Program-made: the position numbers and the translations under genes
Notes under the pieces: generated by a model
The model's input: the letters and a program-made list of their open reading frames with translations, nothing else
Database searches by the model: none
Told to the model about the DNA's origin: nothing
Assembly (NCBI GenBank): GCA_051313645.2
Contig: JBNRSN020000071.1
Location: 1,550,001-1,614,000, forward strand
DNA from: Centroscyllium fabricii
Taxonomy: Eukaryota
Direction: 5' to 3'
Length of the DNA: 64,000 nucleotides
Shown: one piece after another, positions 27,976 through 63,397 of the stretch
How the letters are laid out: each line of letters begins with the position of its first letter
Numbering within the stretch: the stretch's first letter is position 1

Positions 27976-27989
27976 AGAGCCTGGGGTCT

Positions 27990-35400: not shown

Positions 35401-35934
35401 GAGTGACGGGTCTCGGGGCCCTGGAGGGTACGTGAGAAGAAGGCCACGGGTCTGCCCGCCTGGTTAAGGGTGGCGGCCAGGGCAAAGTCCGATGCATCGC
35501 TCTCGACCTGGAATGGGACGGACTCGTCCACAGCGTGCATCGTTGCCTTCGCGATGTCGTCCTTAATGCCGCAGAACGCCGCGCGGGCATCTGCTGACCG
35601 GGGGAATGAGGTTGATTTAAGTAGTGGGCGAGCTTTGTCCGCATAGTTGGGGACCCACTGGGCATAACAGGCGAAGAACCCCAGGCACCTTTTGAGGGCC
35701 TTGAGGGAGTGGGGGAGGGGGAGCTCCATGAGTGAGCGCATGCGGTCCGGGTCGGGACCGATGACCCCATTCTCCACAACACTGCCGAGGATGGCGAGGC
35801 GGGTGGTCCTGAACACACATTTTTCTGTGTTATAGGTCAGGTTGATTGTTTTGGCGGTGTGGAGAAATTTCTGGAGGTTGACGTCATGGTCCTGCTGGTC
35901 GTGGCCGCAGATGGTCACGTTATCGAGATACGGG

Positions 35935-36221
35935 TGTGGTAACCATATATGTATAAATTACCACCGTAATATTGGTGCCAATATTACTAGTGTGCATAGC
36001 GGTCGGGTGCATGAGATGTTGCGACACTGTCGTGGGGCCAGGTCAGCCACACCTCTAACTCCTCCCCCAGGTGAGGCCCTTTATAGGTGAGGACTGACCG
36101 GACCCCGTCCATTCTGTACCTGTTGTTCGTTCAGAGTATAGCTCTTATGTAAGTCAATAAAAGCCTGTAGTTAAGGTCACTACTCGTCTTTGGCTTTATT
36201 GAGTTAATTGACGATACGTCA
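35935..36221 (+). mobile_element. Solo LTR E1 inserted in the RT of element D
   Basis: TGTGGTAACC...GATACGTCA, TSD acggg/acgga. It splits the FPYLDN motif and resembles LTR 39502-39802. Confidence 0.9.
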
Positions 36222-37365
36222 ACGGAAAAGTGGCCCGCAGCCCGTACTGATCGACCATTCGGTCCATCTCCCTTTGGAAGACCGAGAACCCATTCGTGAT
36301 GCCAAACGGAACCCTGAGGAAGTGATAGAGGCGACCGTCAGCCTCGAAGGCGGTATAGAGACGGTCCTCTGGGCGGATGGGGAGCTGGTGATACGCGGAC
36401 TTCCGATCTATAGTTGAGAAGACCCGAAACTGCGCGATCTGATTTACCATGTCCGCTATCCGGGGGAGGGGGTACGTGTCTAACTGTGTGAACCGGTTAA
36501 TGGTCTGGCTATAGTCCACTACCATCCGGTTCTTAGCTCCGGTCTTCACCACCACTACCTGCGCCCTCCAAGGGCTGTTACTGGCCTCGATGACCCCCTC
36601 CCTAAGAAGGCGCTTCACCTTGGACTTGATGAAGTCCATGTCCCCGGTACTGTAGCGCCTACTTTTGGTGGCGACGGGCTTGCAGTCCGGGGTGAGGTTA
36701 GCAAAGAGCGAGGGAGGGGTGACCTTAAGGGTCGAGAGGCCACAGGTAGCGCGCCGAGGGTGCTGCGAGGAGCGCTGGTTGCAGACCGTGAGCGGGGGAA
36801 GGGGCCCACCGTACGCCATGGTAACGCTCTGGTGGTGGCACTGGAAGTCCAGGTCCAGTAACAAAGGAGCGCAGAGCTGCGGCAGCACGAATAATTTAAA
36901 AGTGCTAAAGTGCACGCCCCGTACCGTTAGAGTCACCGCGCAACGTCCGGAGACGTCCGCGGATTCCGACTTTGATGCCATAGAGATCTTTTGGCTCGCC
37001 GGCATAACCTTAAGGGAGAGGCGCATTACCGTTTCTGGGAGGACGAAACTCGCCGTACTCCCGCTGTCGAAGAGGCACTCGATGTCCCGCCCGTTCACTT
37101 CCACCGTCATCATCGACCTGCTGAGTGGTTGTGCCTTGTTCTGATCCAAGGTGATGGATGCTAGTGTCGGGTCGGTCGACTCGTCTTGATCCGTAGAGAA
37201 GTCGTCTGGGGCCTGGCCCCAAGCTGGCTGCCGCCATGTGGTGTACTGCGGAGGGAGTGGCTGAGACCAAGATGACGTCTGCTGCCACGCGGTGGGCCGT
37301 GTTGAGGATGGCTGTGTCCAAGATGGCTGCCCCCACGGCCCACACGCGGCACTGCCCGGTTTCGA

Positions 37366-39802
37366 TTGCAAAGGGAGATGGACCGCATGGTTGACCAGAA
37401 CAGGTTGCAGGCCACCTTCCCCTACCTGGACAACGTGACCATCTCCAGCCATGACCAGCAGGACCACGATGCCAATCTGGCCAAATTCCTCCACACGGCA
37501 AAACGGCTAGATCTCACATACAACAAAGACAAGTGTGTCTTTAGTACAGATCGGCTCGCCATCCTCGGATACGTGGTGGAAAACGGGGTCCTCGGCCCCG
37601 ACCCACAGCGTATGCGCCCCTTACAGGAACTGCCCCTTCCTCACAACCCCAAAGCCCTGAAGAGATGTCTGGGATTTTTCTCCTATTACGCGCAATGGGT
37701 TCCCCAGTTCGCGGATAAGGCCAGACCGCTCCTTAAGGCCGCCGTCTTCCCCCTCTCGGTAGAAGCCCACACGGCATTCGCCCGGATCAAGGAAGATATT
37801 ATCAAGGCGACCATGCACGCCGTTGATGAATCCATCCCTTTCCAGGTGGAGAGTGATGCTTCGGATTTTGCCCTTGCCGGCACCCTGAATCAGGCAGGCA
37901 GGCCCGTAGCGTTTTTCTCCCGCACCTTACAGGGACCAGAAATTCGCCACTCTGCAGTGGAAAAGGAGGCCCAGGCCATCGTGGAGGCCGTGCGCTACTG
38001 GCGTCATTACCTGGCCGGTAAGCGTTTTACCCTGCTCACCGACCAACGGTCGGTCGCGTTTATGTTTAATAATAAACAAAAGGGTAAAATCAAGAATGAT
38101 AAGATCCTGCAGTGGTGGATCGAGCTCTCGACTTACGAGTACGACATTCTTTACCGACCAGGCAAACTCAATGACCCCCCGGACGCACTGTCCAGGGGAA
38201 CGTGCGCCAGTGCCCAGCTAGACCGGCTGAAGGAACTCCACGATCGCCTCTGCCACCGGGTGTCACCAGACTTGCCCACTTCGTAAAATCCCGTAGCCTC
38301 CCCTACTCCATCACGGAGATCAAGGCTATGACCCGAGAGTGCCCTGTTTGCGCCGAGTGCAAACGCCAATTTTTCAGGCCAGACACGGCGCATCTCATTA
38401 AGGCCACCCGCCCCTTTGAACGTCTAAGCGTGGACTTCAAAGGCCCCCTCCCCACCACCGACCGCAACTCGTACTTCCTCACGGTCGTAGACGAGTTCTT
38501 CCCCTTCGCCTTCCCCTGCCCAGATATGACGAGCGCAACGGTGATCAAACACTTCACCACACTGTTCGATATTTTCGGTCTCCCCAGCTACATCCATCGT
38601 GACCGGGGGGCGTCGTTCATGAGCGATGAACTGCGTCAGTTTCTGCTCCAGAAAGGGGTTGCCTTGAGCAGAACGACCAGTTACAACCCCCGGAGGAACG
38701 GCCAGGTAGAAAGGGAGAACGGGATCATCTGGAAGGCGGTCACCCTGGCCCTGAAGTCCAGAGGCCTTCCAGTGTCCCGTTGGCAGGCAGTCCTCCCTGA
38801 TGCGCTGCACTCGATACGCTCTCTGTTGTGTACGGCCACCAACGCCACACCTCACGATTTAATCTTTTCATTCCCCAGGAAGTCGACTTCGGGGACAGCC
38901 CTTCCACCGTGGCTCACGATGCCAGGGCCGGTCTTGCTTAGGAAGCACGTCCGCGGCCATAAGACCGACCCCCTGGTAGACAAGGTGCAGCTGCTGCACG
39001 CCAACCCGCAGTACGCGTACGTACATTTCCCGGACGGGCGCGAGGACACCGTCTCCATCAAGGACCTAGCGCCCGCCGGGAGCACCACAGCAGAGCCCCT
39101 GGTCGGGCAACAGCCCGCCCAGCCACTATATTTCGGCCACCTCCAGCCACTACATATCGACCACTGGCCGATACACGACCCACAACCCACCGGAGGCTGG
39201 CCGCCACTACCGTATAGTTCGGAGCCCCCGCCATTGCCAGCTGAGGACCAAGACTCGGATGACCAGCTGCAGGCACAGCAGCAACCGCAGGGCTCGGACC
39301 CACCACCACCACCAGCACCTACAGTACCGGCACCAGCGCTGCCGCCACCACCACCGGCTCCAGCGCCGCCGATGCTGCAGGAACCAGAACATTTGACAGA
39401 GACCCGGCGGTCCTCCAGACAGACGCGACCGCCGGATAAGCTAATCATGAACTGCTCTGTCCATTCACCCCGCCGGACTTGATTTTCAAAGAAGGGGTGA
39501 ATGTGGTAACCGTTATATGTACTATTATTACCACCCTAATATTGTTACCAATATTACATGTATGTATAGCGGTCGGGTGCATGATGCAACTGTCCTGTAT
39601 TGCGACACTGTCGTGGGGTCAGGTCAGCCACACCTCTAACTCCTCCCCTCAGGTGAGTGCCTTATAGGTGGGGACTGACCGGCCCCCATTCATTCTGTAC
39701 CTGATGTTCGATCGGAGCGTAGCTCCGTTGTAAGCTAATAAAAGCCTATAGTTAAGGTAACTACTCGTCTTTGGTTTTATTAAGACTATTGACGATACGT
39801 CA
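37366..39802 (+). mobile_element. 5'-deleted Gypsy element E2 (RT C-terminal half, RNase H, IN, PPT, 3' LTR 39502-39802) inside the gag of D
   Basis: ORFs 37366-38286 and 38202-39482 (one frameshift); PPT GAAGGGGTGAA; LTR abuts the N-terminal gag codons of D. Confidence 0.9.
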
Positions 39803-40147
39803 TGATGCGCCTGGTGTCTGGGGGTCCAGCTCGAACGTTGCTGGCTTGAGCATCGATTCCATCGTCAAATTTAGCTAATAAAATTGTTACCGAATTAACG
39901 ACCTCGTAGACGAGTTATTAAGAGGTGAAAACTATAGGCTTTTATTAGCTAAAGGTGGACATGCACCAGCTAGTCGACCGTCCCCAGGAATGGCTGGGGG
40001 AAGGGAGACGGCCGCTTATATACCTGGTCCTGGGAGGGAGGAGTCGCAGGCGGGGCCAGCATGTGCATGTCCAGGTAACTACACACAGATAACTATTATA
40101 CAACATAGTGAAAGGTGATTACAGCAATATATACATATATATACAAA

Positions 40148-41724: not shown

Positions 41725-44700
41725 TGTGGTAAACCACTGTCTTGTATATATGTATATATGTCTCCCCCTTGTGTCCCCTCCCTGTAACTGTACTATAACC
41801 ATACTATAAAGTGCAACTCCTTGCCTTCTTGTCAGGGAGGACTCACCTGGGAGGACCCCGCTCTTTGGCTTCCTCCCCAGGCTCCGCCCACTGAGTATAA
41901 GAGTGCCAGCACACCTGAGTGCTTTCACTTCGGCTTGGAAGATCGTCAGACCTGTGTCCATTTCTATGTCAATAAAAGCCTCGATTACATCTGACCATCG
42001 ACTGGTAGTAATTGATTGTGCATCAATTTTATTGACATCGTTTCTACAAAAAAAAAGAGGATGGAAAAGTTCCTGAGACCCGACAGACTCGACCTCGTCC
42101 CGCGATCAGCAGGCGCTGAGCGGGCCTTCACGCACTGGGTCTCCTGCTTTGAAGCCTTCCTCGAAGAATCCCGCCTGACCGTGGACACAGAACAGCGGAA
42201 ACTCAAAGTCCTGCGGGCCCAGGTCAGCCCTGAGCTCTTCAGCTTGATCGAGGGCGAAACGACCTATAGGAACGCCCTGGACATCTTAAAAGCTCGTTTT
42301 ACTGCCCCGACGAACGAAATCTACACCAGGCATCTACTACTAAACAGGAAACAACAGCCTGGTGAGTCCTTCACGAACTTTATGGCAGCGTTGCGAACGC
42401 TCATGCGCGCCTGCAATTGTAGGCCGCTAACGGCCAACCAACACCAGGACATAATCCTCAGGGATGCACTGGTGGCTGGACTCAGGTCAACCTATACTCG
42501 CCAGCGGCTGCTGCAGCAGAGCAATATAGACCTGGCGGCGGCTGAAGCGCTAGCGGAATCGCTGGAGGCGGCGCACGTACAAGGAGAGGCCTACGACCAG
42601 CAAGGGGCGCGGGCGCTGACCCCGTGGGCGGGCGAGACGACCACCGCTGCGCCCCCACTCACGTCCGCAGCAGCGGCCCGACCCCAGAAGTGCTATTTCT
42701 GCGGGCAGACGAAACACCCCAGGCAGCGCTGCCCTGCAAAAGATGCGCTGTGATCCAGCTGCAGGAAGAAGGGACATTATGCAGCAGTCTGCAAGAGCAA
42801 ACCACCACCCCCCCCAGCAGCGCCGCGTGTGCTCCCACAGAGCCGCCATTTTGGGGCAGCCAGCACTCACCCCCACGTGGCGAACGTGGGGGCGGCCATT
42901 TTGGATCGGGCGGCCATCTTACACCCTCCACACGGCGAACACGGAGGCAGCCATTTTGCATCAGCGCCGCGTTTGCTCCCACAGGGCGGCCATTTTGAGG
43001 CCTACTCAGCCGCATGCTGTACTACTGGGAGTGATCCACGGGTTGACCTGCAACTCCCACAACTCGCATCGATCACGCTGGACCAGACCCAGCCCCACCA
43101 ACTGGCGCGATCCACCATGGACAATGAGGTAAACGGCCGTGCGGTTAACTGCCTTTTTGACTCGGGGAGTACCGAAAGTTTTATACATCCGGACACGGTA
43201 CGGAGGCTTTCCCTCATGGTACTCCCCGCGCGCCAGCGGATTCTAATGGCTTCCAACACCGCAACGGCGGAAGTCGGTGGTCTTTGCGTGGTTACACTTA
43301 AGGTGCGGGGTACTGTGTATAACCGTTTTAAACTGTTGGTCCTCCCCCACCTCTGCGCTGCCGTCCTACTGGGCCTTGACTTTCAGAGCCACCTCGACAG
43401 CGTGATCATGAAATACGGTGGCCCCCTCCCCCCGTTGACAGTCTGTAGCCAGCAGTTTACACAGCATGAACCCCACACCGTTTGCAGCCTGTTGACCCTC
43501 CCTCACTATTTGCTAACCTCACCCCCGACTGTAAGCCCATAGCTACAAAAAGCAGGCGCTACAGCGTGGGGGACAGACTGTTCATTAAGTCTGAGGTCCA
43601 GCGGCTACTGAGGGAGGGGATCATCGAGGCCAGCAACAGCCCCTGGAGAGCCCAGGTTGTAGTCGTCAAGAACGGCACCAAACACCGCCTGGTCATCGAC
43701 TACAGCCAGACGATCAACCGCTTCACTCAATTGGACGCATACCCCCTGCCTCGCATCTCAGACATGGTCAATGAGATTGCGCAGTACAGGGTGTTTTCTA
43801 CAATTGACCTGAAGTCGGCATATTATCAGCTCCCCATCCACCCCGGAGACCGCCACTTCACCGCCTTTGAGGCGAATGGCCGCCTCTACCACTTCCTGAG
43901 GGTCCCTTTCGGAGTCACCAACGGCATGTCGGTCTTCCAGCGGGAGATGGACCGGATGGTGGACCAAAACGGGCTGCTGGCTACCTTCCCCTACCTCGAC
44001 AACATCACCATCTGTGGCCACGACATGAGGGACCACGATGCGAACTTGGCCAGATTCCTCCACACCGCCAAGCGCCTCAACCTCACCTACAATGAGGAAA
44101 AATGCGTTTTCCACACCACCCGCCTCGCCATCCTGGGGTGCGTCGTGGCAAACGGGGTCATCGGCCCGGACCCCGAACGCATGCGCTCCCTCATGGAGCT
44201 TCCCCTTCCCCAGAGCCCAAAGGCCCTGAAAAGGTGCCTGGGCTTCTTTTCGTACTACGCCCAATGGGTCCCCCAGTACGCTGACAGAGCCCGCCCCCTA
44301 CTGAAATCCACCTCCTTTCCCCTGTCGAACGAGGCTCGGGCGGCCTTCGACAGCATCAAAGCAGCCATCGCCAAGGCGACCATGCACGCTGTGGACGAAT
44401 CCACCCCGTTCCAGGTGGAAAGTGATGCCGCTGATTTTGCCCTGGCCGCCACTCTCAACCAGTCTGGACGGCCGGTAGCCTTCTTCTCCCGCACCCTCCA
44501 CGGCCCCGAAATCAGGCATTCATCAGTGGAGAAGGAGGCCCAGGCCATCGTGGAAGCGGTGCGGCACTGGAGACACTACCTGGCCGGTAGAAGATTTACC
44601 CTGCTCACTGACCAGCGGTCGGTGGCTTTCATGTTTAGCAACAACCAGCGGGGTAAAATAAAAAAGACAAATTCCTACGGTGGAGAATTGAACTGTCCAC

Positions 44701-47155
44701 CAATAATTACGATATCTTGTACCGGCCCGGTAAACTCAATGAGCCCCCGGACGCACTATCCCGTGGAACCTGTGCCAGCGCACAAGTGGATAGACTGCAG
44801 TCCATCCACAATGACCTCTGCCACCCCGGAGTCACCCGGCTCTATCACTTCGTGAAGTCCTGCAACCTGCCCTACTCCGTTTCGGATGTCCGGTACATCA
44901 CCAGGCACTGCCCGACATGTGCGGAGTGCAAACCAATTTTTTTTCGACCAAGCAGAGCCAGTTTGGTCAAGGCCACCAGCCCCTTCGAACGACTGAGCGT
45001 CAATTTCAAGGGCCCCCTCCCCTCCACCAACAGGAACGGGTACTTCCTCACAGTCATTGACGAGTACTCACGCTTCCCTTTCGCAATCCCTTGCCCTGAC
45101 ATGACCACAGCCACGACCATCAGGTGTCTGCACAGCATCTTCACCATGTTCGGCTTCCCCAACTATATCCACACAGACAGGGGGTCGTCGTTCATGAGTG
45201 ATGAGCTGCGCCAGTACCTGCTGTCCAAAGGGATTGTGACGAGCAGGACCACTAGCTACAACCCCCGGGGCAACGGGCAGGTTGAGCGGGAGAACGGTAC
45301 CGTCTGGAAGGCCATCAGCCTCGCCCTACGGTCCAGGGGCCTCCCCGTCTCCCGCTGGCAGGAGGTCCTCCCAGATGCCCTCCACTCCATTAGGTCACTG
45401 CTCTGCACCGCCACCAATGCCACCCCTCACGAGCGGATGTTTTGCTTCCCCAGGATGTCTGCATCTGGGACCTCGCTGCCAGCGTGGCTGACGTCCCCCG
45501 GGCCTGTCTTGCTCCGGAGACACGTGAGGGCCCACAAGACAGACCCCCTGGTCGAAAGGGTACAGCTCCTCCACGCCAACCCCCAGTACGCCTACGTGGC
45601 ATTCCCGGACGGGCGGGGGGACACATGTCTACATTCGAGACCTCGTGCCCTCGGGTGCCCCAGAGACCACCGGCCCCCCCACCCCACCACCGTTCCCCTT
45701 CACGAGACGCTGTCGTCTGGTTCTTTTACAGCTCCTATAGACGGCATGTCGGAGACTCGGGATCGAACGATGCACAACACCCACCCCTCCACGACTGCAC
45801 CACCACCGACTTTGGAGGACACCACACAGCCGGAAGTCCTACAACCGCTGGAGCCAGCACGGCCGGCAACCCCAGGATCAACTCCAAGACCTGCACCGCG
45901 ATGGTCGCTTCGGCAGACCAGACCACCAGAAAGACTTAACCTTTGAAATAAAGGTTCTTCACCCTCGCCGTCATTTTTTTAAACAGGGGGTGAATGTGGT
46001 AAACCACTGTCTTGTATATATTGTATATATGTCTCCCCCTTGTGTCCCCTCCCTGTAACTGTATTATAACCATACTATAAAGGCTACAGAGTGACTTGGA
46101 CAGGTTAGGTGAATGGGCAAATGTATGGCAGATGGCGTACAATGTGGATAAATGTGAGGTTATCCACTTTGGTGGTAAAAATAGAGAGACAGACTATTAT
46201 CTGAATGGTGACAGATTAGGGAAAGGGGAGGTGCAACGAGACCTGGGCGTCATGGTACATCAGTCACTGAAGGTGGAAATGCAGGTACAGCAGGCAGTTA
46301 AGAAAGCAAATGTCATGTTGGCCTTCATAGCGAGGGGATTTGAGTACAGGAGTAGGGAGGTGTTGCTGCAGTTGTACAGGGCCTTGGTGAGGCCACACTT
46401 GGAGTATTGTGTGCAGTTTTGGTCTCCCAGCTTGAGGAAGGCCATTCTTGCTATTGAGGGAGTGCAGCAAAGGTTTACTAGATTGATTCCCGGGATGGCC
46501 GGACTGACATATCAAGAAAGACTGGATCAACTGAAGAATGAGGGGGGATCTCATAGAAACGTTTAAAATCCTGACGGGTTTGGACAGGTTGGATGCGGGC
46601 AGAATGTTCCCACTATTGGGGAAGTCCAGAACCAGGGGGCACAGACTAAGGATAAGGGGTAAGCCATTTAGGACTGAGATGAGGAGAAACTTCTTCACCC
46701 AGAGAGTGGTGAACCTGTGGAATTCTCTACCACAGAACGTTGTTGAGGCCAGTTCGCTAGATATATTCAAAAGGGAGTTAGATGTAATACTTACAACTAG
46801 GGGTATCAAGGGATATGGCGAGAAAGCAAGAATGGGGTACTGATGTAGCATGTTCAGCCATGAACGTGTTGAATGGCGGTGCAGGCTCGAAGGGCCGAAT
46901 GGTCTACTCCTGCACCTATTTTCTATGTATCTATGTATCTATGTAACTCCTTGCCTTCTTGTCAGAGAGGACTCACATGGGAGGACCACGCTCTTTGGCT
47001 TCCTCCCCAGGCTCCGCCCACTGAGTATAAGAGTGCCAGCACACCTGAGTGCTTTCACTTCGGCTTGGAAGATCGTCAGACCTGTGTCCATTTCTATGTC
47101 AATAAAAGCCTCGATTACATCTGACCATCGACTGGTAGTAATTGATTGTGCATCA
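41725..47155 (+). mobile_element. Full-length, decayed Gypsy element C (5' LTR 41725-42025; 3' LTR 45995-47155 interrupted by CR1)
   Basis: gag ATG at 42061 with zinc knuckle, PR LFDSGS, RT, RNase H, HHCC-DDE integrase. One premature stop and several frameshifts. TSD cacac/cccac. Confidence 0.93.
46081..46942 (+). mobile_element. 5'-truncated CR1 LINE inside the 3' LTR of C
   Basis: WQMAYNVDKCEVIHFG...LVRPHLEYCVQFWSP; the LTR sequence resumes at about 46943. Confidence 0.9.
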
Positions 47156-48445: not shown

Positions 48446-48704
48446 TAATTTTATCCATGTGCATCCACAGAAACTGAGACCACTTTCATCTAAACCAGAG
48501 ACAAATTGCTTTTCTATAACAAGGGGAAAGGAAAGGGGTGGAGGTTTTTCAACTCTTCATCCTCTGAAATGACATACCTCCTTGTACTGCCCACTCTGGA
48601 AAGACAAGACTGCTTCACCAGCACTGTAATAAAACAATCCATCCGGATATGGTACAAAGCAGTAATCAGTAGAATATGGGTTTACTCTCCACGTCTTAAG
48701 TCAT

Positions 48705-50950: not shown

Positions 50951-51496
50951 CTGGAAAGAAGTTAAGAGTTTAGGGAACAGCAAATCATAGTTCCATTGTG
51001 TGTGTTTCTTTTAAGAGACAATTAATTGGGTAAATCAAGATTGTCCTTGTAGGCCATCTAGGACAATGGTACGGAGCCGCACGGGACATATACAAAGTTC
51101 AAATCAACACTCCCATTCATTTTCTTTTCCCAAGCGACTGATGCCAACACGTTCTGATGTTCTAATTTAGGATTTATGAGCCAACAGCCCTTTCAAAACC
51201 GCCAAGTCCACATAATCCAAGCCATCCAATATATAAAAGCAGAATTAGAATGGAGTTATCTCATCTTCATGACTGGATTTAATGTGGATACCCAAAGATA
51301 AACTGACAACGTAACATCCCCAGTCCTATGTCCACATGTGTTTCAGCCTTGCATAAAGTATCACAGGAGGAAAATCTGATCTGTTGAGCTTTCAATCCTT
51401 GGTCTGCGACTCGGCTGATCTCTGATAAATGACCACATTTTTCTCCACAATTTTCTGCTGTTCGCAAGACCCTGGTGCATGCTTAGTTGGGGGCTG

Positions 51497-52045
51497 GTCA
51501 CTCCCCACCCCTCTCCTGGACAGTCCGGTCACTCCCACCCCCTCTCCTGGACAGTCCGGTCACTCCCACCCCCTCTCCTGGACAGTCCGGTCACTCCCAC
51601 CCCCTCTCCTGGACAGTCCGGTCACTCCCACCCCCTCTCCTGGACAGTCCGGTCACTCCCACCCCTCTCCTAGACAGTCCGGTCACTCCCACCCCCTCTC
51701 CTGGACGGTCCGGTCACTCCCCACCACCTGTCCTGGACGGTCCGGTCACTCCCCACCACCTGTCCAGGACAGTCCAGTCACTCCCCACCACCTGTCCAGG
51801 ACAGTCCGGTCACTCCCCACCCCTCTCCTGGACAGTCCGGTCACTCCCCACCACCTCTCCTGGACAGTCCGGTCACTCCCACCCCCTCTCCTGGACGGTC
51901 CGGTCACTCCCCACCACCTGTCCAGGACAGTCCAGTCACTCCCCACCACCTCTCCTGGATGGTCCGGTCACTCCCCACCACCTGTCCAGGACAGTCCGGT
52001 CACTCCCCACCACCTGTCCTGGACACTCTGGTCACACCCCACCTC
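51497..52045. repeat. Minisatellite, about 31-32-bp unit (CACTCCCACCCCCTCTCCTGGACAGTCCGGT)
   Basis: Read directly; about 17 units. Confidence 0.95.
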
Positions 52046-53273
52046 TCCAGGATGGTTGTTCTTTGTGTGCAAGCCCGATGGCAAGTGTCAGTAGGCTATT
52101 GGACTGCAGAGGGCATCGTAGCAGAGTCCAATCATCACACCCACAGCTCAAAAGCATTGCCACCAGTGTAGCACCCCAACCACCAAATTATCTGCCATCA
52201 GCTAACTCATGGACCAGGGATCAAACTCAAGGAAAATCCGATTTTTCTACAGATAAAAAAACAGGACCAGGAGTGTGCCCCTGACTCCAGTCGCAATGGC
52301 CTCCCCGCCTCCCATATAGCCCGTTCCAAACTGCACCGCCCATCCCCAGACTTCACGAGGGATGCTACTCGAGAGGCAGATGGCCCGACATTGAGCTCTT
52401 GACTCGGGCGCCCTACCCGTGGAGGAGCGACCAGCGCCTATGGATGAGACTCGAGGGCCAATTTCCACCAATTCTCGGTTCGGGCACGCACTGGTCACAC
52501 AGCTCCAACTCTGGGCCAGAATACGGGCCCCAGACCAAAATCTACCTCATTATTTATTGTAGGGCATGATGCTTCTGTCATTACAAAACAGTGTTTCCTC
52601 TAACTGACTATGAGCACCACAGGGACCAGTAGTTTTTAAAATTAAACTAGAGATGTTGGTAGTGAAGCAGAAGAGCATATTTCTGCTGTTGTGCAAGATT
52701 TGACAATTTAACAGTATTAGACTCATATTTTTAACTCCCTGGCACTTTTTATCAAAGGATACTTTAAGTACATTTTTCTCCACTTGTTCACATCACCAGC
52801 TGTCTGAGTTTACCCTCTGACTGACATTCGCCATGTCCACATCAGGTAATTAGAATCCTGGACACATTTTTCTTCATTTGGACAACAATCCAAGTGTCAA
52901 CACGATGGTGGAAGGTGAGCAGACAAACATTGAGAGATTCTGAACAACTCACGTTGGAGGCGCCAAAGGAAAGCAAGCCAGGCATATTGTAGCTGATATG
53001 ATGAGTCTGAGGTGATTCAGAGCAAGCTAAATGAATAGTTTAACAACAAAGGTCTTGCCTTCAGTATCAACTTTGACTGGCAGCCGTGGCTCAGTGGGTA
53101 TCACTCTGGTCTGAGGCAAACAGGTTGTGGGTTCAAGCCCCCCTCCAGATTACTGAGCACAAAATCCAGCCTGACACTCTAGTGCAGTGCTGAGGGAGCG
53201 CTGCACTGTCCGACATGCCGTCTTTTGAATGAGACATTAAACCGAGGTCCCGTCTGCTCTCTCAAGTGGACGT

Positions 53274-56200
53274 TGACGTATTGTCAATATCTCAGAGTAA
53301 AAGACTCAACGAGTAGTTACCACAACTATAGGCTTTTAATCACTTACTTAGGAGCTACCCTCCGAACGAACATCTGAGCAGGAATGAGGGAGCCTCAGTC
53401 AGTCTCCACCTATAAAGGCCTCACCTGGGGGAGGAGTTAGAGGTGTGGCTGACCTGGCTCCCGACAGTGTTACAGGGCTGTGTATCACACATACAGAGCC
53501 AATTATTGGCAACAAGAATACAGTGGTATAACATAACATTATGGGTTACCACATTCACCCCTTCTTGAAAATTTTAAGTCCGGGGGGGGTGAATGGACCG
53601 AGCAGTTCAATATCAGCCTATCCGGTGGTCGTGCCAGCCTGGAGGACCGCCGGAGATCCGGTGATGATCCTTCATGGTCCGTGCTGCTCGAGTCCGCTGG
53701 TGGTGACAGTTGCCCTGGTGCCATGGTTTCGGGTGGTGATGGTCTCCGCTGGTCCGAGCTATCGGAGTGGTGGTCCTGGGTTGGCCACTGCTGGGGCTCT
53801 GGAAAACTCGGAGGCCATTGTAGGTGTAGGGGGTGTTCTGGATACTGTGGCTGAGCGGCCTGCTGGCCGACCAGGAGCTCTGCGGTGCTTCCTGCGGGCG
53901 CCAGGTCCCTGATAGATACGGTGTCCTCACGCCCGTCCGGGAACTGCACGAATGCGTATTGCGGGTTCGCATGCAGGAGCTGCACCTTGTCCACCAGGGG
54001 GTCGGTCTTGTGGCCACGGACGTGTCTCCTAAGGAAGACCGGCCCCAGTGTCGTGAGCCATGGAGGAAGAGCTGTCCCCGAAGTCGACTTCCTGGGAAAA
54101 GCAAAAATCAAATCATGAGGAGTTGCGTTAGTGGCCGTACATAGGAGAGAGCGTATAGAATGCAGCGCGTCTGGGAGGACTGCCTGCCAATGGGCCACTG
54201 GAAGGCCTCTGGACATCAGAGCCAGGGTGACAGCCTTCCAGATGATCCCATTCTCCCTTTCTACCTGGCCGTTCCCCCGGGGGTTATAACTGGTCGTTCT
54301 GCTCATGGCAACTCCTTTCTGGGGCAGAAACTGACACAGTTCATCGCTCATGAACGATGACCCCCGGTCGCTATGGATGTAGCTGGGGAGACCGAAAATG
54401 GCGAACAGCGTGGTGAAGTGTTTTATCACCGTTGCGCTCGTCATATCTGCGCAGGGGAAGGGGAACTCATCTACGACCGTGAGGAAGTATGAGTTGCGGT
54501 CGGTGGTGGGGAGGGGGCCTTTGAAGTCCACGCTGAGACGTTCAAAGGGGCGAGTGGCCTTGATGAGGTGCACCGTGTCTGGCCGGAAAAATTGGGGTTT
54601 GCACTCGGCGCAAACAGGGCACTCTCGGGTCATAGCCTTGATCTCCGTGATGGAGTAGGGGAGGCTACGGGATCTAACAAAGTGGGCGAGTCTGGTGACA
54701 CCCGGGTGGCAGAGGCGGTTGTGGAGGTCCTTCAGCCGGTCCAGCTGGGCACTGGCGCACGTTCCCCTGGACAGTGCGTCCGGGGGTTCATTGAGTTTCC
54801 CTGGTCGGTAAAGAATGTCATACTCGTAAGTCGAGAGTTCGATCCGCCACCGCAGGATCTTATCATTCTTGATCTTACCCTTCTGTTTATTATTAAACAT
54901 AAACGCCACCGACCGTTGGTCGGTGAGAAGGGTAAAACGCTTACCGGCCAGGTAATGACGCCAGTAGCGCACGGCCTCCACGATGGCCTGGGCCTCCTTT
55001 TCCACTGCGGAGTGGCGAGTTTCGGGTCCCTGTAGGGTGCGGGAGAAAAACGCTACGGTTCTGCCTGCCTGATTCAGGGTGGCAGCAAGGGCGAAGTCCG
55101 AAGCGTCGCTCTCCACCTGGAAGGGAATGGATTCATCAACAGCGAGCATGGTCGCCTTGATGATGTCTTCCTTTATCCGGGCGAATGCCGTTTGGGCTTC
55201 TACCGAAAGGGGGAAAACAGCAGCCTTGAGGAGTGGTCTAGCCGTGTCCGCGAACTGTGGGACCCATTGTGCGTAATAGGAGAAAAATCCGAGGCATCTC
55301 CTCAAGGCTTTGGGGTTGTGAGGTAGGGGCAGTTCTTGAAGGGGTCGCATACGCTGTGGGTCGGGGCCGAGGACCCCGTTCTCCACCACGTATCCGAGGA
55401 TGGCGAGCCGGTCTGTATTAAAGACACATTTGTCTTTGTTATACGTGAGGTCCAGCTTATCTGCCGTGTCGAGAAATTTGGCCAGATTGGCATCGTGGTC
55501 CTGCTGGTCGTGGCCGCAGATGGTCACGTTGTCCAGGTAGGGGAAGGTGGCCTGCAACTTGTTCTGGTCAACCATGCGGTCCATCTCCTGCTGGAACACG
55601 GACACTCCGTTGGTCACGCCGAAGGGGACCTGGAGGAAGTGGTAGAGCCGACCGTTCGCCTCGAAGGCGGTGTAGGGGCGGTCGGCTTTCCGGATCGGGA
55701 GTTGGTGATACGCTGACTTAAGGTCGATCGTGGAGAACACCTTGTACTGGGCGATCTGATTGACCATTTCCGAGATGCGGGGAAGAGGGTAGGCGTCGAG
55801 CCCGGTATAGCGGTTGATGGTCTGGCTGTAATCGATCACCAGCCGTTGTTTCTCGCCAGACTTTACCACTACAACCTGGGCACGCCAGGGGCTGGTGCTG
55901 GCTTCAATTATCCCCTCCTTCAGCATACGCCCGACCTCCGACCTGATAAACGTGCGATCCCCCACACTGTACCGCCGACTCTTGGTAGCAATAGGTTTGC
56001 ACTTGGGGTCGAGGTTGGCGAACAGTGAGGGGGGGTCGATTTTCAGGGTGGAGAGGCCGCAGGCCGGGCTCCGCTTTGGGAAGGGACTGTCCCGGCTACT
56101 GACGGTGAGGGGGGGCAAGGTCCCGCCGAACTCCATTGTCACGCTCTTGAGGTGGCACTGGAAATCCAGACCTAGTAAGGCTGGGGCACACAACTGCTGG

Positions 56201-57993
56201 AGGGTGTACAATTTAAAATTACGGTACACGCACCCCTTGACTGTGAACGTGACGGAGCTGTAGCCAGTGACGTCCGCGGTGTGGGACTTTGAAGCAAGGG
56301 AGACTTGGTAGTTTGTGGGCAGGATCTGCAGTCCGCAGCGCTGCACTGTATCGGGGTGCACAAAGCTCTCCGTGCTTCCAGTGTCAAATAGGCAATTAGT
56401 AGTATGGCCGTTTATTTTGATGCGCATTATTGAGTTAGACAGGGTGTGTGGCCTGTCCTGGTCCACTCTGGGTATGGCTGAAGCAGACGTGTGCTTTTGT
56501 GTGTGTGGGCCCCCTGCTGGTTGGGGCTGTACACAAAATGGCGGCGCCCCTGGCTCGCACATGGTGGGGCCCTGGGGACAAAATGGCGGCGCCGAGGGGT
56601 CACACATGGTGGGCCGCCGGGGGCGAGATGGCGGCGCCCGTGGTTCGCACGCGGCTGACCGCTGTGAGCGCGCTGGCAGCGCCCGTGGTTCGCACGCAGC
56701 GGGCCGCGGTGGCTGGGTTGGCGGTGCCCGTGGTTCGCACGCAGCGAGCCGCGGTGGTCGGGTTGGCGATGCCCGTGATTCGCACGCAGCCGGCCGCATT
56801 GGGTCTGCTGCTGGCGTTGGGGGGTCCCGCTTGGCCGGCCTTTGCCGCCTCGGGGTGGGAGATGGGGGCGCTTTCCTCCTACCCCCAGACCGTCGCTGGA
56901 TCGCGCTGCTATTGCAGCTTACCTGAGGTCTGTCGGAGCTTTCACAGGCTGCGCTGTTGTACCTGGAGTTGGGCGCTGTTGGTGCTGATCTGCAAGCCTT
57001 TGCGTAATGTCCCTTCTTGGCGCACCTCTCACAGGTCGCGGTCCTTGCTGGGCATCTCGCTCTCGGGTGCAGTCCCTGGCTGCAGAAGTAGCAGCGTTTG
57101 TCTTTTGTGGCTGTCACAGCCATCGTGGGGGTCTCGACCCGTCGTGGTGCTGCCCAGGCCTGGGTCCGTTGTGGCGTGGCCCACATGTCGTAGGCCTGCG
57201 GGTTTGTGCCGCTGTAAGCTTGTAGTTTGTTGCGTGCTCCTTCCACGGAGTTAGATATAGCAATCGCGTCTTCGAGGGACAAAGTGTCTTTTCCGAGCAG
57301 CCGCTGGCGGGCCTCCACGCACCTTAGTCCAGTTACATACGCGTCTCGGACGAGGAGGTTCGCCTCCTCTTCTGCTGTCCGGGCTTGGCAGCCACAGACC
57401 CGTACCAGGGCCTGGAGCGCTTGCTCAAATTGTTCATTAGTCTCACCCGGTAGTTGTGGTCTGGTCGCGAGCACATGTCTGGCGTAGACCGAATGGACCG
57501 GGCGCTCGTAGCATTTCCTCAGCTTTTCCACTGCCCCTGGGTAGGTTTTGGCGTCTCGGATGAGGGAGAATACTCGGCTGGAGATCCTAGACCGGAGAAC
57601 CTGTAGCTTGTTCCCGTCGGTTGTAGCCTTGGCGGCGTCCATATAGGCCTCCAGGAGACCGAACCAGTGTTCGAACGTGGTGGCGGCGGCAGGGTCCTGT
57701 GGACTGATATCCAGCTTTTCTGGCTTTACTGCACCGCTCTCCATTTTAAAAAACTTTAAGTGATTAAAATTGACGTATCGTCAATATCTCAGAGTAAAAG
57801 ACTCAACGAACATCTGAGCAGGAATGAGGGAGCCGCAGTCAGTCTCCACCTATAAAGGCCTCACCTGGGGGAGGAGTTAGAGGTGTGGCTGACCTGGCTC
57901 CCGACAGTGTTACAGGGCTATGTATCACACATACACAGCCAATTATTGGCAACAAGAATACAGTGGTATAACATAACATTATGGGTTACCACA
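53274..57993 (-). mobile_element. Full-length Gypsy element A (3' LTR 53274-53553, 5' LTR 57771-57993)
   Basis: TG...CA LTRs, near-identical apart from a 57-bp deletion in the 5' LTR; PPT; single ORF. Confidence 0.96.
53539..57744 (-). CDS. Gag-Pol polyprotein, 1401 aa (gag with two zinc knuckles, PR, RT with YLDN, RNase H, integrase)
   Basis: CYFC..H..C/CERC...GH...C, LFDTGS, FGVTNG/YLDN, ESDASD..EKE..TDQ..DALSR, HHCC and D,D35E motifs in Gypsy order. Confidence 0.93.
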   Translation of the reverse strand: MESGAVKPEKLDISPQDPAAATTFEHWFGLLEAYMDAAKATTDGNKLQVLRSRISSRVFSLIRDAKTYPGAVEKLRKCYERPVHSVYARHVLATRPQLPGETNEQFEQALQALVRVCGCQARTAEEEANLLVRDAYVTGLRCVEARQRLLGKDTLSLEDAIAISNSVEGARNKLQAYSGTNPQAYDMWATPQRTQAWAAPRRVETPTMAVTATKDKRCYFCSQGLHPRARCPARTATCERCAKKGHYAKACRSAPTAPNSRYNSAACESSDRPQVSCNSSAIQRRSGGRRKAPPSPTPRRQRPAKRDPPTPAADPMRPAACESRASPTRPPRLAACEPRAPPTQPPRPAACEPRALPARSQRSAACEPRAPPSRPRRPTMCDPSAPPFCPQGPTMCEPGAPPFCVQPQPAGGPHTQKHTSASAIPRVDQDRPHTLSNSIMRIKINGHTTNCLFDTGSTESFVHPDTVQRCGLQILPTNYQVSLASKSHTADVTGYSSVTFTVKGCVYRNFKLYTLQQLCAPALLGLDFQCHLKSVTMEFGGTLPPLTVSSRDSPFPKRSPACGLSTLKIDPPSLFANLDPKCKPIATKSRRYSVGDRTFIRSEVGRMLKEGIIEASTSPWRAQVVVVKSGEKQRLVIDYSQTINRYTGLDAYPLPRISEMVNQIAQYKVFSTIDLKSAYHQLPIRKADRPYTAFEANGRLYHFLQVPFGVTNGVSVFQQEMDRMVDQNKLQATFPYLDNVTICGHDQQDHDANLAKFLDTADKLDLTYNKDKCVFNTDRLAILGYVVENGVLGPDPQRMRPLQELPLPHNPKALRRCLGFFSYYAQWVPQFADTARPLLKAAVFPLSVEAQTAFARIKEDIIKATMLAVDESIPFQVESDASDFALAATLNQAGRTVAFFSRTLQGPETRHSAVEKEAQAIVEAVRYWRHYLAGKRFTLLTDQRSVAFMFNNKQKGKIKNDKILRWRIELSTYEYDILYRPGKLNEPPDALSRGTCASAQLDRLKDLHNRLCHPGVTRLAHFVRSRSLPYSITEIKAMTRECPVCAECKPQFFRPDTVHLIKATRPFERLSVDFKGPLPTTDRNSYFLTVVDEFPFPCADMTSATVIKHFTTLFAIFGLPSYIHSDRGSSFMSDELCQFLPQKGVAMSRTTSYNPRGNGQVERENGIIWKAVTLALMSRGLPVAHWQAVLPDALHSIRSLLCTATNATPHDLIFAFPRKSTSGTALPPWLTTLGPVFLRRHVRGHKTDPLVDKVQLLHANPQYAFVQFPDGREDTVSIRDLAPAGSTAELLVGQQAAQPQYPEHPLHLQWPPSFPEPQQWPTQDHHSDSSDQRRPSPPETMAPGQLSPPADSSSTDHEGSSPDLRRSSRLARPPDRLILNCSVHSPPPDLKFSRRGECGNP

Positions 57994-58574: not shown

Positions 58575-61500
58575 TGACGTATCGTCAAAATCTCTTAATA
58601 GAAGACTGGACGAGTAGTTACCGTAACTATAGGCTTTTAATAACTTACTTTGGAGCTACCCTCCGAACAAACATCAGAACAGAATGAGGGAGCCTCGGTC
58701 AGTCCGCATCGAAAAAGGCCTCACCTGGGGGAGGAGATAGAGGTGTGTCTGACCTGGCTCCACGACAGTATTACAGCAGTATTACAGGGCTGTGTATCAC
58801 ACACAGCCAATTGTTGGCAACAATAATTCAGTGGTACATATACATATTATGGGTTACCACATTCACCCCTTCTTGAAAATTTAAAGTCCGGTGGGGGTGA
58901 ATGGACCGAGCAGTTCAATATCAGTTTGTCCGGCGGTCGTGTCAGCCTGGAGGACCGCCGGAGTTCCGGTGATGGTTCTTCGTGGTCCGTGCTGCCCGAG
59001 TCCGTTGGTGGTGACAGCGGCTCTGGTGCCGTGGTTTCAGATGGTGATGGTCTCAGATGGTCCGAGCTATCGGAGTGGTGGTCTTGGGCTGGCCACGGCT
59101 GGGGCTCTGGAAACCTCGGAGGCCATTGTAGGTGTAGGGGGTGTTCTGGATACTGTGGCTGGGCGGGCTGCTGGCCGACCAGGGGCTCTGCTGTGGTGTT
59201 TCCTGCGGGCGCAAGGTCCCTAATTGAAACGGTGTCCTCACGCCCGTCCAGGAACTGTACAAACGCGTATTGTGGGTTCGCATGCAGGAGCTGCACCTTG
59301 TCCACCAGGGGGTCGGTCTTGTGGCCACGGACGTGTCTCCTAAGGAAGACCGGCCCTGGTGTCGTGAGCCATGGAGGAAGAGCTGTCCCCGAAGTCGACT
59401 TCCTGGGAAAAGCAAAAATCAAATCATGAGGGGTGGCGTTAGTGGCCGTACACAGGAGAGAGCGTATAGAATGCAGCGCGTCTGGGAGGACTGCCTGCCA
59501 ATGGGCCACTGGAAGGCCTCTGGACTTCAGAGCCAGGGTGACCGCCTTCCAGATGATCCCATTCTCCCTTTCTACCTGGCCGTTCCCCCGGGGGTTATAA
59601 CTGGTCGTTCTGCTCGTGGCAACCCCTTTCTGGAGCAGAAACTGACGCAGTTCATCGCTCATGAACGATGACCCCCGGTCGCTATGGATGTAGCTGGGGA
59701 GACCGAAAATGGCGAACAGCGTGGTGAAGTGTTTTATCACCGTTGCGCTCATCATATCTGCGCAGGTGAAGGGGAAGCGGGAGAACTCGTCTACGACCGT
59801 GAGGAAGTATGAGTTGCGGTCGGTGGTGGGGAGGGTTCCTTTGAAGTCCACGCTGAGACGTTCAAAGGGGCGGGTGGCCTTAATGAGGTGCACCGTGACT
59901 GGCCGGAAAAATTGGGGTTTCCACTCGGCGCAAACAGGGCACTCTCGGGTCATAGCCTTGATCTCCGTGATGGAGTAGGGGAGGCTACGGGATCTGACGA
60001 AGTGGGCGAGTCTGGTGACACCCAGGTGGCAAAGGCGGTCGTGGAGGTCCTTCAACCGGTCTAGCTGGGCACTGGCGCACGTTCCCCTGGACAGTGCGTC
60101 CGGGGGTTCATTGAGTTTGCCTGGTCGGTAAAGAATGTCTTACTCGTAAGTCGAGAGTTCGATCCGCCACCGCAGGATCTTATCATTCTTGATCTTACCC
60201 TTCTGTTTATTATTAAACATAAAAGCCACCAACCGTTGGTCGGTGAGAAGGGTAAAACGCTTACCGGCCAGGTAATGACGCCAGTAGCGCACGGCCTCCA
60301 CGATGGCCTGGGCCTCCTTTTCCACTGCAGAGTGGCGAGTTTCGGGTCCCTGTAAGGTGCGGGAGAAAAACGCTACGGGCCTGCCTGCCTGATTCAGGGT
60401 GGCAGCAAGGGCGAAGTCCGAAGCGTCGCTCTCCACCTGGAAGGGAATGGATTCATCAACAGCGAGCATGGTCGCCTTGATGATGTCTTCCTTTATCCGG
60501 GCGAATGCCGTTTGGGCTTCTACCGAAAGGGGGAAAACGGCAGCCTTGAGGAGTGGTCCAGCCTTGTCCGCGAACTGTGGGACCCATTGTGCGTAATAGG
60601 AGAAAAATCCTAGGCATCTCCTCAAGGCTTTAGGGTTGTGAGGTAGGGGCAGTTCTTGAAGGGGTCGCATACGCTGTGGGTCGGGGCCGAGGACCCCGTT
60701 TTCCACCACGTATCCGAGATGGCGAGCCGGTCTGTATTAAAGACACATTTGTCTTTGTTATACGTGAGGTCCAGCTTATCCGCCGTGTCGAAGAATTTGG
60801 CCAGATTGGCATCGTGGTCCTGCTGGTCGTGGCCGCAGATGGTCACGTTGTCCAGGTAAGGGAAAGTGGCCTGCAACTCGTTCTGGTCAACAATGCGGTC
60901 CATCTCCCTTTGGAACACTGACACTCCGTTGGTCACGCCGAAGGGGACCCGGAGGAAGTGGTAGAGCCGACCGTTCGCCTCGAAGGCGGTGTAGGGGCGG
61001 TCGTCTTTCCGGATCGGGAGTTGGTGATACGCTGACTTAAGGTCGATCGTGGAGAACACCTTATATTGGGCGATCTGGTTGACCATTTCCGAGATGCGGG
61101 GGACGGGGTAGGCGTCGAGCCCGGTGTAGCGGTTGATAGTCTGGCTGTAATCGATCACCAGCCACTGTTTCTCGCCAGACTTCACCACTACGACCTGGGC
61201 CCGCCAGGGGCTGGTGCTGGCTTCAATTATCCCCTCCTTCAGCATACGCCCGACCTCCGACCTGATAAACGTGCGATCCCCCAAACTGTACCGCCGACTC
61301 TTGGTAGCAATAGGTTTGCACTTGGGGTCGAGCTGGGCGAACAGTGAGGGGGGGTCGATTTTCAGGGTGGAGAGGCCGCAGGCCGGGCTCCGCTTTGGGA
61401 AGGGACTGTCCCGGCTACTCACGGTGAGGGGGGGCAAGGTCCCGCCGAACTCCATTGTCACGCTCTTGAGGTGGCACTGGAAATCCAGACCTAGTAAGGC

Positions 61501-63397
61501 TGGGGCACACAACTGCTGGAGGGTGTACAATTTAAAATTACGGTACACGCACCCCTTGACTGTGAGCGTGACGGAGCAGTAGCCGGTGACGTCCGCGGTG
61601 TGGGACTTTGGAGCAAGGGAGACTTGGTAATTCGTGGGCAGGATCTGCAGTCCGCAGCGCTGCACTGTATCGGGGTGCACAAAGCTCTCCGTGCTTCCAG
61701 TGTCAAATAGGCAATCGATAATATGGCCATTTATTTTAATAGGCATTATCGAATTCGACAGAGTGTGTGGCCTGTCCTGGTCCACTCTGGGCATGGCTGA
61801 AGCCGACGTATACTTTTGTGTGTGGGGGCCCCTTGCTGGTTGGGGCTGTACACAAAATGGCGGCGCCCCTGGCTCGCACATGGTGGGGCCTTGGAGACAA
61901 AATGGCGGCGCCCCTGGCTCGCACATGGCGGGTCGCTGGGGACAAAATGGCGGCGCCGAGGGGTCGCGATGGCGGCGCCCGTGGTTCGCATGCGGCTGAC
62001 CGCTGTGAGCGCGCTGGCGGCGCCCGTGGTTCGCACGCAGCGGGCCGCGGTGACTGGGTTGGCGGCGCCCGTGGTTCGCACGCAGCGGGCCGCGGTGGTC
62101 GGGTTGGCGGTGCCCGTGATTCGCACGCAGCCGGCCGCGTTGGGTCTGCTGCTGGCGTTGGGGGGTCGCGCTTTGCCAGCCTTTGCCGCATCGGGGTGGG
62201 AGCTGGGGGCGCTTCCCTTCTACCCCCGGACCGTCGCTGGATCGCGCTGCTATTGCAGCTTACCTGAGGTCTGTCGGAGCTTTCACAGGCTGCGCTGTTG
62301 TACCTGGAGTTGGGCGCTGCTGGTGCTGATCTGCAAGCCTTTGCGTAGTGTCCCTTTTTGGCGCACCTCTCGCAGGTCGCGGTCCTTGCTGGGCATCTCG
62401 CTCGCGGGTGCAGTCCCTGGCCGCAGAAATAGCAGCGTTTGTCCTTTGTGGCTGTCGCAGCCATCGTGGGGGTCTCGACCCGTTGTGGTGCTGCCCAGGC
62501 CTGGGCCCGTTGTGGCGCGGCCCACATGTCGTAGGCCTGCGGGTTTGTGCTGCTGTACGCCTGCAATTTATTGCGTGCTCCTTCAACGGAGTTAGCTATG
62601 GCGATAGCCTCTTCCAGAGACAAAGAGTCTTTTTCGAGCAGCCGCTGGTGGGCTTCCACGCACCTCAGGCCGGTTACGTACGCGTCTCGGACGAGGAGGT
62701 TCGCCTCCTCTTCTGCTGTCCGGGCTTGGCAGCCACAGACCCGTACCAGGGCCTGGAGCGCTTGCTCAAACTGTTCGTTGGTCTCACCCGGTAGTTGTGG
62801 TCTGGTCGCGAGCACATGTCTGGCGTAGACCGAATGGACCGGGCGCTCGTAGCATTTCCTCAGCTTTTCCACTGCCCCTGGGTAGGTTTTGGCGTCTCGG
62901 ATGAGGGAGAATACTCGGCTGGAGATCCTAGACCGGAGAACCTGTAGCTTGTTCCCGTCGGTTGTAGCCTTGGCGGCGTCCATATAGGCCTCCAGGAGAC
63001 CGAACCAGTGTTCGAACGTGGTGGCGGCGGCTGGGTCCTGTGGACTGATATCCAGCTTTTCTGGCTTTACTGCACCGCTCTCCATTTCAAAATTTTTAAG
63101 TTATTAAAATTGACGTATCATCAATATCTCTTAATAAAAGACTGGACGAGTAGTTACCGTAACTATAGGCTTTTAATAACTTACTTTGGAGCTACCCTCC
63201 GAACGAACATCAGAACAGAATGAGGGAGCCTCGGTCAGTCCGCACCTATAAAGGCCTCACCTGGGGGAGGAGTTAGAGGTGTGGCTGACCTGGCTCCATG
63301 ACAGTATTACAGCAGTATTGCAGGGCTGTGTATCACACACAGCCAATTGTTGGCAACAATAATTCAGTGGTACATATACATATTATGGGTTACCACA
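58575..63397 (-). mobile_element. Full-length Gypsy element B, same family as A, decayed (LTRs 58575-58861 and 63111-63397)
   Basis: gag-pol broken into ORFs 61736-63085, 60622-61926, 60140-60709 and 58847-60055; TSD tgcgc/tgcgt. Confidence 0.95.

Follow-up and report, generated by a model that had tools for sequence, protein, structure and literature searches.

The stretch of the Centroscyllium fabricii genome analyzed here (64,000 nucleotides of contig JBNRSN020000071.1, positions 1,550,001 to 1,614,000; hereafter, the window) carries copies of a Ty3/Gypsy-type long terminal repeat (LTR) retrotransposon whose reverse transcriptase (RT) has an asparagine (Asn, N) in place of the third aspartate (Asp, D) of the active-site triad. 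Scanning the whole window in six frames for Y[LIVMA]D[DN] recovered five sites, at 37423 (+), 43992 (+), 60858 (−), 55539 (−), and 35930 (−); all five read YLDN and none YxDD, as a first-pass annotation of this DNA had stated. The Asn codon is AAC in every one of them, and the Asp codon before it is GAC in four and GAT in one. Relative to the copy at about 55.5 kb (the 55.5-kb copy), the other copies show 81 to 93% identity in the RT protein and about 70 to 94% identity in the DNA. In an alignment with the Ty3 RT (PDB code 4ol8; E = 3e-49), YLDN falls on the YLDD of Ty3 with no gap in the motif, which equates N751 with Ty3 D214. The two aspartates that are essential in both Ty1 and Ty3 (D686 of motif A and D750 of motif C) are retained, and N751 is fixed across subfamilies.

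The single open frame of the 55.5-kb copy, which reads into the 3′ LTR, has Pfam matches in the Gypsy order (protease, residues 453 to 540; RVT_1, 640 to 798; RNase H, 884 to 985; rve, 1076 to 1167), with no env or chromodomain among the Pfam matches at E ≤ 0.001. The elements share with Ty3/Gypsy elements (Metaviridae) the gag-protease-RT-RNase H-integrase order, TG...CA LTR termini, 5-bp target site duplications (TSDs), a polypurine tract, and an RT-RNase H fold of the Ty3 type (the best PDB sequence match, cited above; template modeling [TM] score, 0.71); the YxDD of the canonical RT catalytic triad is what they lack. They further differ from Ty3 in having no tRNA-type primer-binding site (PBS) and in the clade-specific motifs WRAQ, DYSQTIN, and NGV. 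The integrase core of the 55.5-kb copy is missing five residues, all of which are present in 19 of 19 aligned relatives. Because of this deletion and another in the 5′ LTR (Table 1), this copy is itself probably nonfunctional; its open frame is therefore weak evidence, and the claims made below rest on family-wide data.

Fixation of asparagine in the family

Genome-wide counts were obtained from the species' own 7.2-Gb assembly with exact 33-nt degenerate patterns. YLDN was matched 178,107 times and YLDD 226 times, which is fewer than the control patterns YLDS (359) and YLGN (693, representing loss of an essential Asp), both reached by the same single A-to-G change as YLDD; a wider pattern gave 218,502 DN versus 422 DD matches. 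YLDD is at or below the mutational background. We infer from this low count that D has not been amplified; because the sequence context differs among the three sites, the reading is not extended to selection against D. In a tree of the first 20 YLDD matches and the first 60 nonoverlapping YLDN matches of one contig, computed with the D/N codon excluded, the YLDD copies require 18 changes, i.e., they are scattered point mutants, and they are no more intact than the YLDN copies (median open frame, 536 versus 597 codons). Revertants to D among 200,000 copies should have spread if D were much the better residue, and none appears to have done so. The first-pass annotation had itself raised the idea of active YLDD master copies elsewhere as a challenge to its reading; no such copy of the YLDN family was found among the genome-wide motif matches.

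Recent activity and purifying selection

LTR pairs were found in 40 of 60 sampled YLDN copies, with a median identity of 97.4% (range, 91 to 100%; at least 98% in 13 pairs and 100% in one), and open frames of at least 1,100 codons in 8 of the 60. An exact 5-bp TSD flanks 35 of 42 testable copies, whose LTRs begin with TG in 40 and end with CA in 39. The LTR pairs are young and the target duplications measure 5 bp; in this family, whose copies exceed 200,000, recent activity is thus supported. The first-pass annotation had argued as much from near-identical LTR pairs and an open frame; the former argument stands, and the latter, as drawn from the 55.5-kb copy, carries little weight.

The ratio of nonsynonymous to synonymous substitution (dN/dS) was computed from 39 unbroken 165-codon RT stretches (38 of the 60 sampled copies plus the window copy; 22 were dropped because of stops or indels) as a ratio of means over pairs binned by DNA identity. 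It declines from 0.235 in the closest pairs (at least 95% identity) through 0.165 and 0.137 to 0.06 in the most distant ones (<80%), a bin in which dS is saturated in 112 of 306 pairs. The motif A aspartate is present in all 39 stretches; the Asn codon is AAC in 32 and AAT in 7, N itself being fixed by the search pattern in this sample. Judged from these sequence comparisons, the RT of the family is under purifying selection, the absence of which had been named beforehand as the other main threat to the claim. Taken with the counts and the scatter of YLDD copies, this bears out the earlier description of YLDN as a fixed lineage trait and not decay.

Alternation of YxDN and YxDD within one clade

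Among the query and its top 120 homologues (121 proteins), 96 have YxDN, 24 have YxDD, and 1 has another motif. Among named records, DN is represented by sharks, rays, a sea anemone, a tunicate, and a mussel, and DD by a nematode, a psyllid, and a damselfly; the closest named protein matches of the window element are from sharks and rays. When representatives of 50% identity clusters that cover the motif are considered, DN is found in 5 of 5 at ≥60% identity, 15 of 33 at 50 to 60%, 10 of 39 at 40 to 50%, and 0 of 72 below 40%. When 247 RT-RNase H stretches were placed in a tree built without the D/N column, a clade of 185 proteins (117 N and 66 D) emerged that nests, on its own long branch, among LTR-type RTs with YxDD. 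Parsimony requires 18 D/N changes in this clade (mean of shuffled data, 54) or 14 when poorly supported branches are collapsed, and an IQ-TREE analysis of 97 thinned rows gave 16 changes; 9 D/N pairs are independent of one another and lie on branches with strong support. D is basal in the clade; N was gained at least once deep within it and lost again in multimember lineages. YxDN thus marks a large Gypsy clade that tolerates either residue; the substitution is real, old, and widespread, is fixed in the YLDN family, and is carried by relatives in several animal phyla. No relative was found in the viral contigs searched, the ESM Atlas returned generic RT/RNase H clusters only, and cluster look-ups yielded no name for the clade. 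In an unrelated enzyme group, the L polymerases of the Mononegavirales, the motif is GDN, so that the third carboxylate position of a right-hand polymerase is naturally Asn.

We found no description of a YLDN or YxDN Gypsy RT in the literature covered, with subscription literature, Repbase Reports, and GyDB mostly outside that scope and a passing mention there possible. Troyka, as described in the accessible text of PMC12440569, is likewise an LTR element of aquatic animals with short LTRs and a single open reading frame (ORF), and it differs in having CG...CG ends, 3-bp TSDs, and a CX2CX8-10HX4C knuckle where the elements studied here have TG...CA ends, 5-bp TSDs, and CX2CX4HX4C; identity with Troyka was rejected on the termini, the knuckle spacing, and an exact 3-bp TSD in 0 of 42 copies. 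Compared by description only, the Mag lineage (SURL and Mag A/B/C), Cigr-1, and MolGy likewise comprise small elements with one ORF and a pair of CCHC knuckles. In our tree, which includes no named reference, the sister group carries motifs that we take to be of the Mag type. The size of Cigr-1, presumably an ORF of about 1,210 aa with a 245-bp LTR, fits, which stops short of confirming identity. It is possible that the clade is Cigr-1 or a MolGy clade (MolGy1 to MolGy16), as far as these are covered by the available portions of PMC6238403 and PMC3670739; no matching motif was found in the supplementary files searched.

A clade-wide remodeled RT

Structure prediction, which the first-pass annotation had proposed, gave a confident AlphaFold model of an ordinary RT-RNase H (mean predicted local distance difference test score, 91), with the RTs of cauliflower mosaic virus, Ty3, and murine leukemia virus as the best matches. 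The residues diagnostic of the clade include R633 and Q635 (WRAQ), S652, T654, and I655 (DYSQTIN), T723, G725, and V726 (motif B), and G756 in the RT and K971-N972 in RNase H, and they are common to DD and DN members. By human immunodeficiency virus numbering, these residues would contact the template grip. T753, two residues past N (motif C +2), occurs in 111 of the 117 rows with N and in 38 of the 66 clade rows with D but in 0 of the 62 rows of the outgroup; by beta-hairpin geometry only, it would lie next to N751. Since both members carry T753 in 16 of 18 independent D/N pairs, the switches occur on a T753 background. No alignment column tracks the D/N switches significantly in independent pairs, and no obligate compensating residue was found in the YxDN RTs. 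Two candidates were rejected: RNase H N903 as a suppressor (85% of N versus 14% of D rows), which failed in independent pairs, and loss of a K65 equivalent, which was dropped with position 640 being mostly K or R. The changes in the clade RT look like a permissive background and not like a specific suppressor. Of the compensating changes envisaged in the first-pass annotation, a remodeled RT is what can be recognized; its features are common to DD and DN members, none tracks the switches, and the compensating changes themselves are putative.

An LTR-PBS helix and probable tRNA-independent priming

A TGG-type PBS at the LTR end was found in 0 of 47 anchored copies. The bases just past the 5′ LTR pair with a segment 60 to 75 nt inside the LTR that terminates in the poly(A) hexamer, forming a covarying helix of 11 to 19 bp, with a small RCC...GGY hairpin after it. 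The hexamer and its partner covary (AATAAA/TTTATT in 29 and ATTAAA/TTTAAT in 17 of 47 copies). Beyond the hexamer (seven positions, 42 distinct pairs), 250 of 294 combinations are Watson-Crick pairs, compared with 157 ± 7 in shuffles (maximum of 2,000 shuffles, 180) and 39 to 86 in slid registers, the related copies not being independent. The segment points its 3′ end toward U5 (the unique 5′ region), the orientation required of a primer; a TATA box and an initiator-like motif lie about 82 and 52 nt, respectively, upstream of the helix end, and the segment is predicted to be internal to R (the repeat region of the LTR).

The helix is conserved from the window family to distant metagenome relatives. 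We examined 79 metagenome loci, many of which come from one assembly and are not independent; 33 of them have a known motif and a testable 5′ region. A search for the pairing showed the helix in 26 of 27 DN loci (at least 9 nt; 23 at ≥11 nt) and in 4 of 6 DD loci, the other two DD loci having ≤116 nt upstream. It also occurs, at 14 to 15 nt, in 4 of 7 LTR-paired copies of a separate YLDD family in the shark genome (see below). The helix is a trait of DD and DN members of the clade alike, which offers no explanation for N. Because DD members keep the same helix, the link of N to unusual priming that the first-pass annotation suggested is unsupported.

In Tf1, according to the accessible text of PMC7175516, the RNA's first 11 bases anneal to the PBS and RNase H cleaves them. 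The elements studied here resemble Tf1 and sushi elements, as described in that text, in having a PBS complementary to their own LTR RNA and not to a tRNA, with stem-loops adjoining. Unlike the first 11 nt used by Tf1, the putative primer segment here, which ends in the poly(A) hexamer, would lie inside the RNA, its end about 50 nt past the predicted start, and unlike in Tf1/sushi chromoviruses, a chromodomain on the integrase was not found at the Pfam threshold given above.

A natural YLDN enzyme probably active in cis

The most likely explanation, which on the sequence evidence we would put at about 85%, is that the YLDN enzyme of these Ty3/Gypsy-type elements is fully active in cis and that the copies were made by their own enzyme. 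The two metals would be bound by D686 and D750, and the Asn amide, in a clade-wide remodeled RT, would take over the accessory function of the third position in processivity and pyrophosphate handling, as measured for Ty1 D211N and Ty3 D214N. The candidate permissive changes are T753, WRAQ for WxxP, DYSQTIN for DYRxLN, and NGV for NAP in motif B. On such a background D and N would be interchangeable over long times, hence the many switches. Minus-strand priming would be tRNA independent, with the poly(A)-signal segment of the LTR pairing with the PBS and yielding the primer once its 3′ end is cleaved, probably by RNase H in the manner of Tf1; the helix would also hide the 5′ poly(A) signal. 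That the two-aspartate RT is active is, because of the copy number and the selection on it, highly probable. A bolder version, in which an undescribed phylum-spanning Gypsy clade with a two-aspartate RT and its own self-priming (the poly(A)-signal segment of R serving as the primer) has built roughly a tenth or more of the 7.2-Gb genome, the Asn form being the fitter one, is offered tentatively and is more doubtful than the explanation just given.

Several points weigh against activity in cis. RT activity is deduced from copy number and selection. The comparison with Ty1 D211N made in the first-pass annotation is correct: in the accessible text of PMC2148107, this mutant does not transpose; its polymerization rate constant (kpol) is 223-fold lower, its preferred metal is Mn2+, and its binding of pyrophosphate is about 170-fold tighter. 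Suppressors in RNase H restore only 5 to 10%. Ty3 D214N, as reported in the available part of PMC5371799, is still active as a polymerase, though less processive, and is lethal for transposition in vivo. These laboratory mutants have the same substitution at the same position and are active in vitro; they do not transpose, whereas the natural YLDN form accompanies more than 200,000 copies. Since D211N abolishes transposition and D214N is lethal in vivo, real compensation would be needed, and neither candidate residue tracks D/N in the 9 independent pairs: T753 gives 1.2 versus 0.6 (median P = 1), and RNase H N903, which leans with N, gives 2.9 versus 0.3 (median P = 0.25). Further, 8 to 13 of the 18 switches are confined to single tips, where mutation in dead copies could account for them. 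The pairing itself is better assured than self-priming, because the predicted start site is about 40 nt upstream of the segment, which in Tf1 is at the RNA 5′ end. Finally, the wider pattern surfaced a separate YLDD family of the same clade in the shark's own genome (FSYLDDITVCG; 111 motif matches).

Alternative explanations

The best-surviving alternative, itself unlikely, is that N is a positive adaptation to self-priming or to an RNase H-coupled step, e.g., a slower or nonreversible polymerization tuned to the RNA-RNA primer helix. N arose only within the clade carrying the helix, all DN members with a testable 5′ region sit in that clade, and the DN subfamilies are about 2,000-fold more numerous than the DD family in their own genome. 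The suppressors of Ty1 D211N map to RNase H (PMC2148107, accessible text), where N903 leans the same way as N751. However, DD members retain the helix both in the metagenome and in the shark genome, D reversions founded multimember lineages, and the metagenome loci, many from one assembly, are not independent. Tf1-type self-primers, moreover, are known as YxDD enzymes.

Far less probable is that the YLDN copies are nonautonomous and depend in trans on a YLDD enzyme, supplied by a rare master within their own family or by the separate YLDD family. Between 226 and 422 YLDD motif matches do exist, and the separate family is coherent and has the same PBS-LTR pairing. However, same-family YLDD matches are fewer than those of the dead-enzyme control YLGN and are scattered on the tree, and the separate family has about 55% identity in RT-RNase H, possesses distinct LTRs of about 225 bp, and is decayed: in all 20 copies examined, the open frame around the motif spans 59 to 661 codons. 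This makes it unpromising as a helper or master and well suited as a natural DD control within one host. With a passenger RT, a dN/dS of 0.06 to 0.24 and invariant D686 and D750 would not arise, and YxDN proteins are found across phyla. Copying in trans is thus largely refuted already.

Slightly less credible still is that the gene encodes Asn and the functional enzyme contains Asp, either because the mRNA undergoes A-to-I editing or because the protein is deamidated. AAC edited to IAC reads as Asp, and deamidation of Asn yields Asp; however, the mRNA of an LTR retrotransposon is its packaged genome, so that edits would be passed on to new copies as GAC, whereas YLDD falls below background, and Asn before Val or Ile deamidates slowly. 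The origin of N by decay, i.e., methylation-driven deamination of the CpG in GAC-GAC to GAC-AAC after insertion, has next to no probability: the main subfamilies do use GAC-AAC, the exact product of that transition, and a few single-tip N proteins could arise so, but N makes up 99.87% of the motif matches despite LTR pairs differing by only about 2.6%, five of ten subfamily clusters use the CpG-free GAT-AAY, and the true YLDD family (GAT-GAC) has turned to N in just 4 of 100 among the matches listed, so that such a mutation may have seeded the change and is refuted as the cause of its fixation.

Features of the window

The YLDN-bearing copies and the features of the 55.5-kb copy are collected in Table 1. 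In one of the copies, a solo LTR of the same family (about 35936 to 36222, +) is inserted within the RT active-site motif and separates YLDN from TFP. Contigs of four sequencing runs under three organism codes, compared at a 2% threshold, vary synonymously at 55528 and 55531, and no difference is listed for 55529 to 55530; the source sample may be among them, and they are given no weight as support.

Table 1. Positions of the retrotransposon copies and their parts in the window
Feature	Position	Strand	Remarks
RT motif C, FPYLDN	55528..55545	−	D750 codon 55531-55533, N751 codon 55528-55530; N751 equals Ty3 D214 and Ty1 D211
RT motif A catalytic aspartate D686	55723..55725	−	Invariant in 126 aligned clade members
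gag-protease-RT-RNase H-integrase single open frame	53539..57780	−	1,413 codons; ATG at 57744; two CCHC knuckles
RNase H domain (PF17917)	54826..55131	−	Acidic residues D892, E927, and D954 invariant in the alignment
5′ LTR, 55.5-kb copy (TG...CA)	57771..57993	−	About 80 nt lost, including the PBS-pairing segment; small hairpin at end
PBS position, 55.5-kb copy	57757..57770	−	Without TGG; complementary to the LTR segment terminating in the poly(A) hexamer
3′ LTR, 55.5-kb copy (TG...CA)	53274..53553	−	Polypurine tract before the LTR at about 53554-53571
13-nt LTR segment terminating in ATTAAA(A)	53334..53346	−	PBS complementary; TATA-like box about 80 nt and initiator-like motif about 50 nt upstream of the segment's 3′ end
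Second full-length copy	58575..63397	−	LTRs 63111-63397 and 58575-58861, 96% identical; frameshifted; FPYLDN 60847-60864
Divergent-subfamily copy	41812..47155	+	5′ LTR end 42025; 3′ LTR from 45995, interrupted; FPYLDN 43986-44003
5′-truncated copy nested inside the 33491..40147 element	37342..39802	+	FPYLDN 37417-37434; 3′ LTR 39502-39802
Copy with LTRs 99.2% identical over 264 nt	33491..40147	−	YLDN 35919-35930; motif C split by solo LTR

Between the CCHC knuckles and the protease of the 55.5-kb copy, a proline/arginine-rich tandem peptide repeat (about AACEPRAPP) occupies positions 56330 to 56930; it was not found in 19 aligned nonshark relatives. Elsewhere, a tandem array with a 21-nt period and hundreds of copies (positions 1 to 8600) creates long plus-strand open frames, and further tandem or low-complexity regions (51429 to 52284, 15800 to 17700, and 27750 to 30220) contain long overlapping open frames on both strands. 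Short interspersed repeat families of 120 to 870 nt with 75 to 95% identity (8872 to 15713, 24748 to 26183, and 46091 to 48447) are likely fragments of short or long interspersed nuclear elements.

Implications

The third aspartate of the RT triad has been treated as near-invariant, and annotators call elements intact by YxDD; YxDN copies should not be scored as dead. The role of this residue has been open since Ty1 D211N and Ty3 D214N were found active in vitro and dead in vivo. The clade offers natural DD and DN sister enzymes with repeated switches between them, which makes the question testable without engineering. The helix between the poly(A) signal and the PBS, for its part, points to a second, independent route of tRNA-free priming. 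At 218,502 matches and a unit of about 4.8 kb, the family would amount to about 0.7 to 1.0 Gb (10 to 15% of the assembly), an estimate that may include haplotype duplication. The YLDN family thus contradicts the expectation from two yeast model elements while being among the largest LTR expansions inferred, and its size bears on the large size of some shark genomes.

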